Source of the DNA: Escherichia coli
GTDB lineage: Bacteria; Pseudomonadota; Gammaproteobacteria; Enterobacterales; Enterobacteriaceae
Length of the DNA: 64,000 bases
Reading direction: 5' to 3' (one strand)
NCBI RefSeq assembly: GCF_029227855.1
Contig: NZ_CP074356.1
Translations under genes and position numbers: made by a program
In this document: positions 133 to 56,365 of the stretch, in pieces
Numbering within the stretch: the first letter of the stretch is position 1
Layout of the letters: each line of letters begins with the position of its first letter
Notes under the pieces: generated by a model
The model's input: only the letters and a program-made list of their open reading frames with translations
Told to the model about the DNA's origin: nothing
Databases searched by the model: none

Positions 133-249
133 TATATGCCCCTTATGGAATTTTTAGTATTTAGCCGTCCAGATGTTTACACATCCATAATTGGCGGTTA
201 CTGTATATTCCTCAAGCGCAAATTATTCATGCCGAAGTGAAGGACTTTC
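133..249. promoter_or_regulatory. metE-metR divergent promoter/operator region
   Basis: AT-rich 117 bp between two divergent start codons; expected location of MetR/MetJ sites from established knowledge; individual sites not resolved by eye. Confidence 0.4.
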
Positions 250-7202: not shown

Positions 7203-7225
7203 ATTCACCCCGATTGCCTGAAATA

Positions 7226-7252
7226 AAAACAGGCGCTATTTTCAGCGCCTGC
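7226..7252 (-). terminator. probable intrinsic terminator downstream of pldA
   Basis: Inverted repeat caggcgct/agcgcctg preceded on the + strand by an A-run (a T-run after the hairpin on the - strand). Confidence 0.5.
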
Positions 7253-7334
7253 GCGAGAAACTGCAATGCTTTTAGTCTCTGAGAGGGTAATCCTGGATGC
7301 TGGATTCCAGATTTGCCAACCACTCAACCGTTCA

Positions 7335-9821: not shown

Positions 9822-10136
9822 TTATCTTTTTTTGAAAAAAATTAAGATAAGAAAAAGAACAATATTTGTTACAGGAAATACCCCCAAAACTCCCCAGTAC
9901 TTACTCCATCCTAGAGACATCGTATATCTACCAAGGATTTGACAAAACCCAAAACTTAACCCTATACCTATACTTCTTAAATTTAATGTCGTAGTCAGGC
10001 TTAAAATAAATAGAACAAGGATGGTAATAGCCCACCACAATAACCATGCCTTAACAAAATCAGATTTTTTGCTGTAAGGTTCTTTACCCAAGAACAACTG
10101 CCAAAAGTTACCATTTCCCATATAGAATCCATTCAC
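9822..10136 (-). CDS. small hypothetical membrane protein (104 aa, GTG start), low-GC
   Basis: ORF with 2-3 predicted TM segments (AWLLWWAITILVLFILSLTT; VLGVFPVTNIVLFLILIFF); AT-rich; may correspond to one of the small yigF/yigG-type genes of this interval, but I cannot verify that. Confidence 0.4.
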   Translation of the reverse strand: MNGFYMGNGNFWQLFLGKEPYSKKSDFVKAWLLWWAITILVLFILSLTTTLNLRSIGIGLSFGFCQILGRYTMSLGWSKYWGVLGVFPVTNIVLFLILIFFKKR

Positions 10137-10333
10137 CCAAGATATTGTTTATAGAATAAAAATACATTTCAATTATATTTAATTAAAATATACCCCATCA
10201 ATAAAAACTTACACACTCTAAATTACTACTGTATAGTTATCAATGCAAAGACTGCTATATTGCATATATATATGCAAACCACATAATTCAGGTAATATAT
10301 ATTCAAAACAATTATATATAAAACAGTGTAAAA

Positions 10334-10720
10334 ATGTTCAAATTATCCATCAGAAATATATTCTACCCATCCAGGCTTGAGCGTTTATCACGCTTTCAGT
10401 TCATAATCTATACATTAACATCATGGTCAATATTAATAACTTTGAATGATATCAACCTGGCTTTGAGTTTTATTCTGGTTATTAATAATACCTATGTAAA
10501 TATCAATATTGGAGCAAAAAGAATAAGAGATACTGGATGTAAGGCAATCTACTTTGTATTGATTTCATTGGGCTTGACACTTTTTTCTATTATCTCTGCA
10601 GCAATTGAAGGGATGAGATGTGAGTCATTAAGCGTCCAACTCAACGTGGCATGGATATTATTCACAACAATTATGTTATCTGCGATTCCCTCGGCTAAAA
10701 TGTCGCTGTCAGCACACTAA
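10334..10720 (+). CDS. small hypothetical inner membrane protein (128 aa), low-GC
   Basis: ORF with about 4 hydrophobic segments, preceded by a very AT-rich 200 bp region; ends 25 bp before the duplicated corA 3' fragment (convergent). Confidence 0.45.
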   Translation: MFKLSIRNIFYPSRLERLSRFQFIIYTLTSWSILITLNDINLALSFILVINNTYVNINIGAKRIRDTGCKAIYFVLISLGLTLFSIISAAIEGMRCESLSVQLNVAWILFTTIMLSAIPSAKMSLSAH

Positions 10721-10744
10721 CTTACTCACAGCGACATCGTATAG

Positions 10745-10883
10745 TTACAGCCAGTTCTTACGCTTAAAGTACAGATACGGTGTCAGGCCCGCGAGGATCA
10801 TAAAGATAATCGCGCCAGGGTAGCCGAAGCCCCACTTCAGTTCTGGCATAAACTCAAAGTTCATGCCATAGCTGGAGGCAATC
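10745..10883 (-). pseudogene. duplicated 3' fragment of corA (last ~46 codons and stop)
   Basis: About 135-140 bp nearly identical (about 8 mismatches) to 12456..12595 at the true corA 3' end; encodes ...[43 protein letters not shown] versus ...[29 protein letters not shown] in intact corA. Confidence 0.8.
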
Positions 10884-11071
10884 CGCGTAGGAAAAAGTTT
10901 CCTAATCGGTAAATTCAACATTTTGTTATTAACAATGAGCAAGACCAATCATTAACGAGGTTCTCTTCAGAGATGTAATGAAAAAATGTGAAGTTTACTT
11001 CTTTTTTAAATATTTTTTTACCCTAGCATTTGTTCTCGAATTGATATTGAGCTTAAATATAACCAAGGCAA

Positions 11072-11926
11072 ATGCAAATGAATAACATATTACTTCCGCC
11101 AATTAATATTCCCTGTACACTTTTCGAAACTATTAGTTTATTCGATGATTTTTCTGCTGATGATATGCAATATGGTGATATGGTAGAACAAGACTTTCTC
11201 TCACTCGGCCTAAGCGATATCTCAGCAAAAGTTGATCCTTACAGACTTATTAAATACCATTTCCCTGGCCCAGGTTCTATTAATGTTGCTTTTAGTGCCT
11301 CAAGTTCCGGAACAAAAATATCACAACGTGAATGCACTGATATTTTATTTGCAGAAATGAAAGAACTAGCAAAAATGCTTTCCTTTTTTGGACAATATAA
11401 AACACTTATCGAAGATCTGATTGAACATTTTAGATATGGAAATGGCAGCAATTTTCATAGCCAACAATTAAATTTATCTTTTCATGAAAAAATAAATAAA
11501 TATGGTTATAATAGTCCAATACGAATAATCAAAGAATGTATCGAAAATGGCATTAATTCAACTCCCTCGACAGGATACCAACCTCTTATCCTGCAAAGCA
11601 TTAAAACCAAATTACTTTCATCAAGACTAAATAAATTTAATGACTTCGAGGACAGTTTTAATGGCTTAGGAATCAGTGTTCATGATATTTCAGCTCAAAA
11701 AATATCTCTTTTAAGTTTTCAAAAATACGCTATAGGATGGAGTGCAACAATTCATTTTGTAGCACAGGACCACTTCGGTCTTGATGTAACTGATATCAAA
11801 AACAAGACTTACAGCAAATATAGATTTTTTCGCATATGGTTCTTTTTACAACGGCATAAAGACTTTGCTTTCAAACCTTTTTTCACCAATTTTAACACTA
11901 TCGAAAGAATCGAAAATTATCTATGA
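11072..11926 (+). CDS. hypothetical protein, 284 aa, no recognisable motif; first gene of a low-GC two-gene cassette
   Basis: Long ORF in a region of about one-third G+C; AAGG Shine-Dalgarno 7 nt upstream; no signal peptide or TM segment evident; stop overlaps the start of the next ORF (ATGA). Confidence 0.6.
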   Translation: MQMNNILLPPINIPCTLFETISLFDDFSADDMQYGDMVEQDFLSLGLSDISAKVDPYRLIKYHFPGPGSINVAFSASSSGTKISQRECTDILFAEMKELAKMLSFFGQYKTLIEDLIEHFRYGNGSNFHSQQLNLSFHEKINKYGYNSPIRIIKECIENGINSTPSTGYQPLILQSIKTKLLSSRLNKFNDFEDSFNGLGISVHDISAQKISLLSFQKYAIGWSATIHFVAQDHFGLDVTDIKNKTYSKYRFFRIWFFLQRHKDFAFKPFFTNFNTIERIENYL

Positions 11927-12414
11927 AAAGCAAACTCCAGAAAATTATATTATGTTTATTTCTTCTATGCTGCATCTATAATTTATGGACATTGCGTCCT
12001 GTACAGATTTTGTATACATACTCTGATGCTGGCAATTCAGTCTTTCTGGTCGTTGATCATCTGCCATGGACTGACAGCGATAAAATAAATTGGTATCTGA
12101 AGCATCAGAATGAAATTAAAAATCAACATCCCCTACCAGAAGGTAGTTGGCATACCTGGTATGTCATTGATATCGGTAATGGCTTCACTGACTATAAAAA
12201 ATATATCGAAGGGCCGTATGAAGATCTCTACTGTTTCCCGACAATTAAGAGCAATGATAATTGCATCGTGAAAAATTACTTAATGGTTATTAATGAATAC
12301 CCTTATCGTAACACTCATATTGGTATTAACGATTTTACTGAGTATCAATTAACACAAGAAAATAAAATAGAGCGAGTTTTCAATCCGCATGACTTTAAAT
12401 ACGACAATTTTTAG
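11923..12414 (+). CDS. hypothetical protein, 163 aa, with N-terminal signal peptide or membrane anchor; second gene of the cassette
   Basis: N-terminus MKSKLQKIILCLFLLCCIYNLWTL (basic then hydrophobic); Tyr/Trp/Asn-rich remainder; translationally coupled to the upstream ORF; ends 41 bp before the corA stop (convergent). Confidence 0.6.
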   Translation: MKSKLQKIILCLFLLCCIYNLWTLRPVQILYTYSDAGNSVFLVVDHLPWTDSDKINWYLKHQNEIKNQHPLPEGSWHTWYVIDIGNGFTDYKKYIEGPYEDLYCFPTIKSNDNCIVKNYLMVINEYPYRNTHIGINDFTEYQLTQENKIERVFNPHDFKYDNF

Positions 12415-14576: not shown

Positions 14577-14683
14577 GATGCCGGATGCGGCGTAAACGCC
14601 CTATCCGGCCTACATGACGTTGCAATTTATTGAATATGAATGATTTTTTAGGCCAAATAAGGTGCGCAGCACCGCATCCGGCA
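14577..14683. repeat. BIME-like cluster: two REP units flanking an IHF-like motif
   Basis: gatgccggatgcggcgtaaacgccctatccggcctac and ggtgcgcagcaccgcatccggca with tgcaatttattgaat between them; lies between convergent yigE and uvrD. Confidence 0.6.
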
Positions 14684-14686
14684 ACG

Positions 14687-16849
14687 TTACACCGACTCCA
14701 GCCGGGCGTATGCCGCCACCAGCCATTTAATACCCTGGCCCTGGAATGCCACCTGCAAACGGCTATGCTCGCCGCTGCCTTCCATATTGACGATGGTGCC
14801 TTCACCAAACTTAGCGTGGCGTACACGCTGACCGAGCTTGTAGCCGCTGTCGTTCTCGACCATCGGCGTCCCCATCCGTTGATGGCTGACCGGACGACTT
14901 ACCGTAGCGCGCAGGCGCACCTCTTCCACACACTCTTCCGGCAGCTCGCCGATAAAGCGCGACGGGCGATGGTAAACCTCTTTACCATACAGACGGCGGG
15001 TTTCCGCGTAGGTCAGCGTCAGTTTCTGCATCGCGCGGGTTACACCAACGTAGGCCAGACGGCGTTCTTCTTCCAGACGCCCGCCTTCATCCAGCGACAT
15101 CTGGCTTGGGAACATACCCTCTTCCATACCGACAATAAACACCTGCGGGAACTCCAGGCCTTTCGCCGAGTGCAGCGTCATCAACTGCACTGCATCCTGC
15201 CAGGTATCCGCCTGCCCCTCGCCCGCTTCCAGCGCCGCATGGGAGAGGAATGCCTGCAGCGGCATTAAATCTTCATCTTCTTCGTTGTAGCTGAACTGGC
15301 GCGTTGCCGTCACCAGTTCCTCTAAGTTTTCGATACGCGTCTGGCCTTTTTCGCCCTTCTCCTGCTCGTACATGGTGCGCAGGCCGGAGTCTTTAATTAC
15401 CCGGTCAGTCTGTACATGCAGCGGCATATCGGCAGTTTCTTGCGCTAAGGCATCGATTAATTCCATAAATCGCTGCAAGGCGCTGGCAGCTCGCCCGGCG
15501 AGGGCTTTTTCCTGCAACAGTTCACGACATGCCTGCCAGAGTGTTAACTGGCGATCGCGCGATGTCTGACGTACCACGTCCAGCGTCCGGTCACCAATAC
15601 CCCGCGTTGGCGTATTCACCACGCGCTCAAACGCCGCGTCGTCGTTACGGTTGGCAATCAGACGCAGATACGAGAGCGCGTCTTTGATTTCCTGGCGTTC
15701 GAAGAAGCGCATCCCGCCGTAAATACGGTACGGCATACTGGCCTGCAACAGTGCTTCTTCCAGTACACGCGACTGGGCGTTACTGCGGTAGAGAATGGCG
15801 CACTCGGCAAGCGCCCCGCCGTTGTCCTGCCAGGTTTTGATGCGGTTAACCACAAAACGCGCTTCATCGAGTTCGTTAAAAGCGCAATAGAGGGAAATAG
15901 GCTCACCGTCCGCGCCATCGGTCCACAGTTTTTTACCCAGACGCCCGTTATTGTTTTCAATCAGGGCGTTAGCGGCGCTCAGAATATTGCTGGTAGAGCG
16001 GTAGTTTTGCTCCAGACGAATAGTTTCGGCACCGGGGAAATCATTAAGGAAACGCTGAATATTCTCCACCTGCGCCCCGCGCCAGCCGTAGATTGACTGG
16101 TCGTCATCACCGACGATCATCACTTTGCCGGTGTCGCCCGCCAGCAGGCGGATCCACGCGTACTGAATGTTGTTGGTATCCTGGAATTCGTCCACCAGGA
16201 TATTGGTAAAACGTTCGCGGTAGTGTTGTAGGATATGCGGCTTGTTAAGCCACAGTTCGTGAGCGCGCAGCAGCAGCTCGGCGAAGTCCACCAGGCCCGC
16301 GCGGTCACACGCTTCCTGATACGCCTGATACACCTTCTGCCAGGTCTGCTCCACCGGATTACCGTAGCTTTGAATATGATGCGGACGCAGGCCTTCATCT
16401 TTCTGGCTGTTGATGTACCACATTGCCTGGCGCGGCGGCCACTGCTTCTCGTCGAGGTTCATGGCTTTGATCAGACGCTTAAGCAGGCGCAGCTGGTCCT
16501 CGCTATCGAGGATCTGGAAATCCTGCGGCAGATTGGCGTCCATATGGTGCGCACGCAGCAGGCGGTGCGCCAGCCCGTGGAAGGTGCCGACCCACATGCC
16601 GCCCTGGCTGGTGCCCATCAGTTGCCCGATACGATGACGCATCTCCGCCGCCGCTTTGTTGGTAAACGTCACCGCCATAATCGAGTATGGCGAGCAGTTT
16701 TCCACGCTCATCAGCCAGGCGATACGATGCACCAGTACGCGCGTCTTACCACTGCCCGCGCCCGCCAGCACCAGAAGGTTGCTGCGTGGCGCGGCCACCG
16801 CTTCGCGCTGTTTGTCATTAAGGCTGTCGAGCAGGTAAGAAACGTCCAT
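14687..16849 (-). CDS. uvrD: DNA helicase II UvrD
   Basis: ORF track gives 783 aa; true start MDVSYLLDSLNDKQREAVAAP gives 720 aa; Walker A AGAGSGKT; UvrD/Rep family. Confidence 0.93.
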   Translation of the reverse strand: MDVSYLLDSLNDKQREAVAAPRSNLLVLAGAGSGKTRVLVHRIAWLMSVENCSPYSIMAVTFTNKAAAEMRHRIGQLMGTSQGGMWVGTFHGLAHRLLRAHHMDANLPQDFQILDSEDQLRLLKRLIKAMNLDEKQWPPRQAMWYINSQKDEGLRPHHIQSYGNPVEQTWQKVYQAYQEACDRAGLVDFAELLLRAHELWLNKPHILQHYRERFTNILVDEFQDTNNIQYAWIRLLAGDTGKVMIVGDDDQSIYGWRGAQVENIQRFLNDFPGAETIRLEQNYRSTSNILSAANALIENNNGRLGKKLWTDGADGEPISLYCAFNELDEARFVVNRIKTWQDNGGALAECAILYRSNAQSRVLEEALLQASMPYRIYGGMRFFERQEIKDALSYLRLIANRNDDAAFERVVNTPTRGIGDRTLDVVRQTSRDRQLTLWQACRELLQEKALAGRAASALQRFMELIDALAQETADMPLHVQTDRVIKDSGLRTMYEQEKGEKGQTRIENLEELVTATRQFSYNEEDEDLMPLQAFLSHAALEAGEGQADTWQDAVQLMTLHSAKGLEFPQVFIVGMEEGMFPSQMSLDEGGRLEEERRLAYVGVTRAMQKLTLTYAETRRLYGKEVYHRPSRFIGELPEECVEEVRLRATVSRPVSHQRMGTPMVENDSGYKLGQRVRHAKFGEGTIVNMEGSGEHSRLQVAFQGQGIKWLVAAYARLESV

Positions 16850-16897
16850 TGGCACCGCCGCGTAAAAATAGGTTGGGCGGAGAAGCGCAACGCCCTC

Positions 16898-16913
16898 CGC
16901 CAAAAAGCTGGGT
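16898..16913 (-). promoter_or_regulatory. LexA (SOS) box in the uvrD promoter
   Basis: On the uvrD strand reads CTGTATATATACCCAG (CTGT-N8-CCAG, close to CTGT-N8-ACAG), about 50 bp upstream of the uvrD start. Confidence 0.6.
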
Positions 16914-16932
16914 ATATATACAGATTTGCTGA

Positions 16933-17649
16933 TTATATCAGCGAGGTCAGAGATGCCAACCGGGAAATTTCCAGATGCGGCAGTAAACGGCTGTCCCAGG
17001 TTTGCATCAGATCGCCATTTTCCGGTCTGATCCAACAAGCCTGCATTCCGCTGCGAATTGCCCCACCCACGTCAGTGGTGAGATCGTCCCCAACATGTAA
17101 GATCTCGCCGATCGGCACGTTGAGTTTTTCCGCAGCCAAAAAGTACATATCGCTGAACGGTTTTGAGCGCCCGTGCGGGCCAGCGCGCAGCACAAACTCA
17201 AAATAATCCCCCAAACCAAACAGTTCCGGCTGGGCGTTACCGTTGGTGATCGCCACCAGCGGCCATTTCTTCGCCAGCTGTTTTAAGGTGTCGTGAGTTT
17301 GCTGCGGGACGTCGATTCGGCTGCGCCATTTGGCAAAGTTAATCATTGCTGCGTGTGCGCCTGCACTGGCTTCTTCGGCACTCAGCCCGGCGTCGAGCAT
17401 CGCTTGTTCAATCGAACGAAAACGCCAACGCGTCACGTCGTGATAAATCTCGGGTTCCGCTTCCCGTACCGCCTGGCGCAGGCGTTGCAGATCTTCATTC
17501 TGGAAGCTGCGCAGCGCCGGATGATAATTTTGCACAAAGGTAAGCGCCTCTCGCTCGGTGCGCAAAATCACCGGACGGTTATCGTAAAGGGTATCATCCA
17601 GGTCAAAGGTGAGCGCCGAGATGCGCCCCAAAGGCCGGTAAAAACGCAT
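16933..17649 (-). CDS. yigB: HAD-family hydrolase (FMN phosphatase-type) YigB
   Basis: 238-aa ORF with HAD motif I ([11 protein letters not shown]); last gene of the dapF-yigA-xerC-yigB operon. Confidence 0.85.
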
Positions 17650-56324: not shown

Positions 56325-56365
56325 TCGCGCGGGTAGGCCTGATAAGCGAAGCGCTATCAGGCATT
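56325..56365. repeat. REP-like palindromic unit
   Basis: gtaggcctgataagcgaagcgctatcaggc between ilvY and ilvA. Confidence 0.4.

Follow-up and report, generated by a model that had tools for sequence, protein, structure and literature searches.

How is transcription of uvrD, which encodes DNA helicase II, controlled from the short stretch of DNA between this gene and yigB, and is a LexA operator part of that control? The window, by which we mean the whole stretch of 64 kb that was analysed, is an E. coli chromosomal segment in which dapF-yigA-xerC-yigB-uvrD all lie on the minus strand, an orientation left unstated by an earlier sequence-only reading of the same DNA. A 4.1-kb query around the yigB-uvrD spacer matched many complete E. 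coli genomes at 100% identity, and in these it is annotated as yigA-xerC-yigB-uvrD-yigE, and the gene coordinates were taken from the coordinate-matched RefSeq record of a 100%-identical E. coli genome (Table 1). The spacer is 83 nt long and occupies positions 16850-16932, exactly where the sequence-only reading had placed it; its sequence is the same as that of K-12 (NC_000913.3, 3997900-3997982). A 151-nt segment around the spacer is likewise the same as in K-12, and is found at 99% identity or more in 5401 of 5425 complete E. coli genomes.

Followed along the minus strand, the upstream part of the region runs from GAAATTTCCCGG through TTGGCA, TCTCTGACCTCGC and TG to A and TATAAT. After TATAAT come CAGCAA and then the putative operator, ATCTGTATATATACCCAGCT, and the leader that follows the operator consists of TTTT, GGCGGAGGGCGTTGCGCTTCTCCGCC, CAACC, TATTTTTA and CGCGGCGGTGCCA up to the ATG. 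The two distances given by the sequence-only reading were loose rather than misleading: the yigB stop is 9 nt from the CTG of the box where about 20 had been given, and the CAG of the box is 58 nt from the ATG where about 50 had been given.

Table 1. Features at the yigB-uvrD junction, in window coordinates
Feature	Position	Strand	Remarks and basis
yigB CDS	16933..17649	-	3' end carries the uvrD promoter; read-through into uvrD possible from here; annotation
-35 hexamer TTGGCA of the uvrD promoter	16954..16959	-	within yigB Leu-Ala codons; promoter scan
Extended -10 TGaTATAAT	16932..16940	-	TATAAT (16937..16932) overlaps the yigB stop TAA (ATA TAA T)
yigB stop TAA	16935..16933	-	RefSeq annotation of identical genome
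Predicted transcription start, A	16925	-	7 nt past the -10; equals K-12 NC_000913.3 3997907; from -10 geometry only
LexA operator (SOS box), 20 bp, ATCTGTATATATACCCAGCT	16906..16925	-	exact match, PWM, HI, published motif, orthologous boxes
Operator core CTG-N10-CAG, invariant, CTGTATATATACCCAG	16923..16908	-	exact match, single copy in window
Leader hairpin, 26 nt, candidate attenuator stem-loop, GGCGGAGGGCGTTGCGCTTCTCCGCC	16876..16901	-	dG -17.1 kcal/mol, hairpin alone
CAACC and T-rich tract TATTTTTA	16863..16875	-	directly past the hairpin; read from sequence
uvrD CDS	16849..14687	-	720 aa; start codon ATG 16847..16849; RefSeq annotation and sequence

The palindromic CTG-N10-CAG skeleton of gammaproteobacterial LexA operators is present at the site. 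The skeleton by itself is uninformative as evidence for LexA, as 24 copies were counted in the window against 14 expected, a number reached by none of 100 shuffled sequences, and this excess is probably due to the usage of CTG and CAG codons and not to LexA sites. The full 16-mer CTGTATATATACCCAG occurs once in the 64-kb window and in none of 100 dinucleotide-preserving shuffles. For scoring, we used the 18 aligned E. coli LexA motifs listed in Table 4 of PMC3009722, from which uvrD was removed, and the remaining 17 sites were symmetrised and converted into a 20-bp position weight matrix (PWM). With uvrD left out in this way, ATCTGTATATATACCCAGCT was the top match of the entire 64 kb, at 15.6 bits, the runner-up reaching 12.1 bits, and only 6 of 200 simulated 64-kb sequences (first-order Markov) contained any site with such a score. 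The SOS box that had been proposed upstream of uvrD from the letters alone was thus recovered as an exact 16-mer and as the best matrix match in the window.

The strength of the site was then compared with that of known LexA sites. In a leave-one-out ranking the uvrD box came 15th of 18 known boxes, so that its score, 15.3-15.6 bits with uvrD excluded, falls inside the range of validated sites (4 to 28.6 bits), toward the weak end. It matches the LexA consensus at 14 of 20 positions. The Berg-von Hippel heterology index (HI) of the box, computed from the same 18-site set, was 5.66, making it the sole site of the window below 10; the published value for the uvrD box is 8.5 (PMC11228462, Table 1). 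The 25-mer given as the uvrD LexA motif in Tables 4 and 7 of PMC3009722, AAATCTGTATATATACCCAGCTTTT, is identical here. Judged by these sequence measures, the uvrD site appears to be a real LexA operator of mid-to-weak strength. Two other regions of the window were inspected with the same matrix and index. In the metE-metR intergenic region, TACTGTATATTCCTCAAGCG (199-218, plus strand) has a perfect LexA left half-site and a right arm reading CAAG for CAG, and is the third-best matrix match of the window (11.4 bits, HI 10.9); the region upstream of recQ (7203-7334) is without a LexA-like site, the lowest HI being 17.5.

A promoter scan of 6.2 kb around uvrD returned a single strong sigma-70 site, TTGGCA-16-TGaTATAAT, which matches the consensus at 11 of 12 positions and has an extended -10 in addition. 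This promoter sits within yigB and not in the spacer. The operator starts 6 nt past its -10, and the CTG core of the operator 8 nt past it; with +1 predicted from the -10 geometry, the operator would cover about +1 to +20 of the transcript. A mapped uvrD transcription start was searched for and not found in the supplements of PMC3415461 and PMC2760140, nor in Supplementary Data 1 of PMC6131387. The entry 'uvrDp' of PMC2996942 was also considered as promoter data and was rejected, as it contains qPCR primer names only.

The embedded promoter is conserved among Enterobacterales. TATAAT preceded by TG was found in 38 of 43 of them, one more (L037) having GG instead, and 35 of the 43 have a -35 reading TTGGCA or TTGGCT with a 16-nt spacer. 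The n of TGnTATAAT varies; it falls on the first position of the codon that ends yigB, which consequently encodes Ile, Leu or Val, and the rest of the element is near-invariant. The last 15 codons of yigB (224-238) rank first of 224 sliding windows for third-position conservation. The uvrD promoter hexamers are kept even where the amino acids encoded by yigB change.

We then looked at the box itself across a wider range of bacteria. A search of a genome collection with UvrD gave a comparative set of 80 species from the Enterobacterales, Vibrionales, Aeromonadales, Alteromonadales and Pasteurellales, in which the best PWM match within 150 nt upstream of uvrD was recorded, and 3468 windows of 150 nt from the same loci served as controls. 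A box of at least 10 bits was present in 68 of the 80 species (85%) versus 9 control windows (0.26%), and one of at least 14 bits in 44 species versus 2 control windows. The core of the box reads TATAAAT in many species. The box is kept in Vibrio, Aeromonas and Pasteurellaceae, in which a gene other than yigB lies upstream of uvrD, and all sampled Vibrionaceae carry it upstream of uvrD, most of them at a distance of 7-15 nt from the ATG and one (L050) at 127 nt. A LexA-like box upstream of uvrD was absent or decayed in seven Shewanella species (L059-L064 and L068; best score below 6 bits), and in Xenorhabdus ehlersii (L031) TATAAT is kept and the box has decayed to CTATATAAAAATATTAAC (best score also below 6 bits). 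Neptunicella marina (L080) has, in addition to the box at its uvrD promoter, a LexA-like sequence of 20.3 bits, AACTGGATATTAATCCAGCT, at positions 1062-1081 of that locus, 1.4 kb upstream of uvrD.

Published expression data agree with an SOS function. E. coli uvrD stands among the classical SOS genes in the table of PMC11228462, with a 2.1-fold induction by AZT and a 1.7-fold dependence on LexA cleavage, and its promoter reporter was described as an 'early' UV-induced SOS promoter (PMC5999292). The Salmonella uvrD gene, with one box, was induced 13.9-fold by nalidixic acid and displayed LexA-independent basal heterogeneity (PMC8072944). The E. coli work is summarised in PMC4439123, where Arthur & Eastlake 1983 and Finch & Emmerson 1983 are cited, as two promoters, one constitutive and one governed by LexA, with a 3- to 6-fold induction. 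The measured LexA dependence of uvrD is small, about 1.7- to 2-fold. The LexA regulation of uvrD put forward by the sequence-only reading is upheld by the operator score, the promoter-adjacent position, the 68 species with a box and the published tables (PMC3009722, PMC11228462), and we conclude that the element is almost certainly the LexA operator of the E. coli uvrD promoter.

How does this operator compare with others? The promoter-operator does not differ in any way from that of E. coli K-12: the sequence is identical, a single element seen in two strains of the species. The gammaproteobacterial LexA operators, such as those of recA, lexA, sulA, umuDC, uvrA and uvrB, have the consensus TACTG(TA)5CAGTA, and the uvrD box shares with the recA/lexA/sulA type the CTG-N10-CAG skeleton, an AT-rich centre, a predicted overlap with a sigma-70 promoter and, going by the literature, derepression by RecA-stimulated LexA cleavage. 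It is weaker than most of them, by consensus match as well as by matrix rank, and lies downstream of the -10, not over the hexamers; uvrD also differs from them in having its promoter within the coding sequence of the gene before it and a hairpin in the leader past its operator. The V. cholerae uvrD gene has an orthologous LexA box, and its expression changes when LexA is non-cleavable (lexA(ind-)) or when the box is mutated; this box reportedly overlaps a -10 (PMC4439123) and, unlike in E. coli, yigB is not the upstream neighbour.

Taken as a working model, in which the sequence, score, promoter geometry and conservation were computed here and the LexA dependence, attenuation and yigB-uvrD transcript come from the literature, the sigma-70 promoter with its extended -10 embedded in the last yigB codons would drive uvrD. 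Transcription would start about 7 nt past TATAAT, at what is presumably the first base of the 20-bp operator, and a bound LexA dimer, spanning about +1 to +20, would hinder RNA polymerase binding or escape, probably by a steric effect. Upon DNA damage, RecA-stimulated self-cleavage of LexA would free the promoter, and uvrD would rise a few-fold. Because the operator is mid-to-weak (published HI of about 8.5) and the promoter near-consensus, repression is expected to be leaky and basal UvrD high. Two further inputs would act on the 83-nt spacer, namely the leader hairpin with its T-rich tract, an attenuator according to the literature, and LexA-independent transcripts, which may enter from yigB in the absence of an intervening terminator. 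Read-through would presumably interact with the operator and the hairpin.

Among other explanations, the one that survives best holds that uvrD is transcribed mainly by LexA-independent read-through from yigB/xerC, or from a constitutive second promoter, and that the box has a minor role, perhaps as a weak roadblock. A terminator scan of the minus strand detected no terminator-like site between yigB and uvrD (16850-17150), and in Supplementary Data 3 of the SMRT-Cappable-seq study the RegulonDB uvrD operon, b3813, is extended to b3812-b3813 (yigB-uvrD), which supports entry of upstream transcription into uvrD by a transcript that fully covers yigB and uvrD only. Of the read-through that the sequence-only reading had predicted from the dapF-yigA-xerC-yigB operon, the entry from yigB therefore stands, on the missing terminator and this transcript, and an origin at the dapF promoter falls outside what the transcript covers. 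The SMRT-Cappable-seq criterion is at least one 5'-triphosphate full-length read covering both genes, so that a single read satisfies it. A major contribution of read-through would also fit the small LexA dependence (about 1.7-fold; PMC11228462) and the mention of a constitutive promoter beside the LexA-governed one (PMC4439123). That statement of two promoters was not reproduced by our sequence scan, which found a single good promoter within the 850 nt that precede uvrD; when the scan was relaxed, from 17700 to 16840, the only candidate for a second, constitutive promoter was an 8/12 match deep in yigB (17527..17497). Against read-through as the main source, promoter reporters of uvrD are clearly UV-inducible (PMC5999292), and a near-consensus promoter (11/12 plus TG) that is conserved within yigB at the nucleotide level would be hard to explain if it were unimportant. 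We thus consider it rather unlikely that read-through or a second promoter is the main source of uvrD transcripts; this explanation complements control by the LexA operator and does not exclude it, and the 'constitutive' component described in the older papers may be this yigB-uvrD read-through.

Could the operator instead contain a -10 element of its own? Here the box core TATATATA would be the -10 of a second promoter and LexA would repress by occluding it, as described for V. cholerae (PMC4439123), and the TATAAAT core seen in many species would suit such a role. In E. coli, the hexamers inside the box lack the final T (TATATA, 4/6), no acceptable -35 was found 15-19 nt upstream, and the conserved TGnTATAAT located 8 nt upstream is far stronger, which makes an in-box -10 very improbable. 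Finally, that the palindrome is a chance AT-rich CTG-N10-CAG or promoter/UP-like DNA devoid of LexA function, as the 24 skeletons of the window, the consensus match at only 14 of 20 positions and the about 3% of random 64-kb sequences holding an equally good site might suggest, is effectively refuted by its place exactly at the promoter, by the orthologous boxes found in 85% of the species against 0.26% of controls despite differing flanks and neighbour gene, and by the published induction and lexA-dependence data.

Besides LexA, attenuation reportedly controls uvrD, both being named in the title of a 1983 report by Easton and Kushner. The leader of the predicted uvrD transcript contains a candidate for this function, the GC-rich hairpin GGCGGAGGGCGTTGCGCTTCTCCGCC, which is present in the MFE and centroid folds alike. 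The folding stability of the complete E. coli leader does not exceed that of shuffled sequence (z = +0.59), and the stem is not immediately followed by a U-tract: the T-run TATTTTTA begins 5 nt after it, and due to this offset the hairpin was not called by the terminator scan. In view of the leader z-score and the offset T-run, attenuation therefore rests on the 1983 title and not on our analysis. A 3' end of the uvrD leader was not found in the supplements of PMC7815308, and no Rfam family was hit at E <= 1 when 16600-17200 was scanned.

The comparison of Enterobacterales leaders revealed that hairpins recur in them while the sequence is not conserved. The mean folding z was -1.5, with 17 of 39 species below -1.5, and a perfect-stem hairpin with a T/C-rich tail was present in the leaders of 15 of 39 species versus 9.1% of control windows. 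The hairpin sequences differ between genera, and leader hairpins of unrelated sequence were seen at loci L003, L040, L049, L013, L019 and L067 among others. In several genera the transcribed right half of the operator forms part of the stem (CCCAG...CTGGG), which is followed by T-runs, as in Citrobacter youngae, where CCCAG...CTGGG is followed by T8. As evidence for a conserved module, such recurrence is suggestive only. It is possible, although we hold this tentatively and would lean against it, that the promoter over the yigB stop, the operator at +1 and the leader hairpin form one conserved Enterobacterales unit, in which the hairpin would be a true attenuator gating transcripts from the SOS promoter as well as read-through transcripts.

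The origin of the hairpin was also considered. The E. coli hairpin might be a degenerate REP, but it has no significant match to the REPs of the window, and the K-12 annotation is without a REP there. In Pseudocitrobacter (L033) and in a MAG (L004), the uvrD leaders are about 110 nt long and contain an insertion that resembles REP/BIME elements and matches a true REP of the window (56333-56354) over 22 nt, at 91%. This insertion starts at the position homologous to the E. coli hairpin, hinting that the latter may be a REP remnant. The published distance from box to ATG in Salmonella, 105 nt, would fit a similar REP/BIME-like insertion. Within Escherichia, two variants of the hairpin were observed: L070, the GTDB E. 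coli representative, has a G>A SNP in the 3' arm (CTCCGCC to CTCCACC) that breaks one pair relative to the window and K-12, and in E. albertii a C>T change keeps the pairing as G-U.

Two features located elsewhere in the window were recorded. Between the uvrD stop and yigE (14580-14682), two inverted REP sequences (BIME) follow immediately past the uvrD stop codon, one with the sequence GCCGGATGCGGCGTAAACGCC... (plus strand) and the other with GCCGGATGCGGTGCTGCGCACC... (minus strand). Between rarD and corA, a strain-variable insert (9822-12402) contains a hypothetical gene, a corA fragment pseudogene (10745-10891) and genes of the YPO3983 family and DUF943; this layout is presumably unlike that of K-12.

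The SOS box of uvrD was already known, being in the literature since 1983 and in the tables of the SOS regulon, and its recognition from raw sequence serves as a positive control. The promoter embedded in yigB and constrained at synonymous and even non-synonymous positions is a minor refinement rather than new biology, and the same applies, as small refinements, to the repeated occurrence of leader hairpins and to Shewanella having lost the box. A conserved promoter-operator-hairpin module would, if true, be of modest interest. For the cell, the high basal level of UvrD that a leaky operator would allow fits the housekeeping roles of this helicase in mismatch and excision repair.
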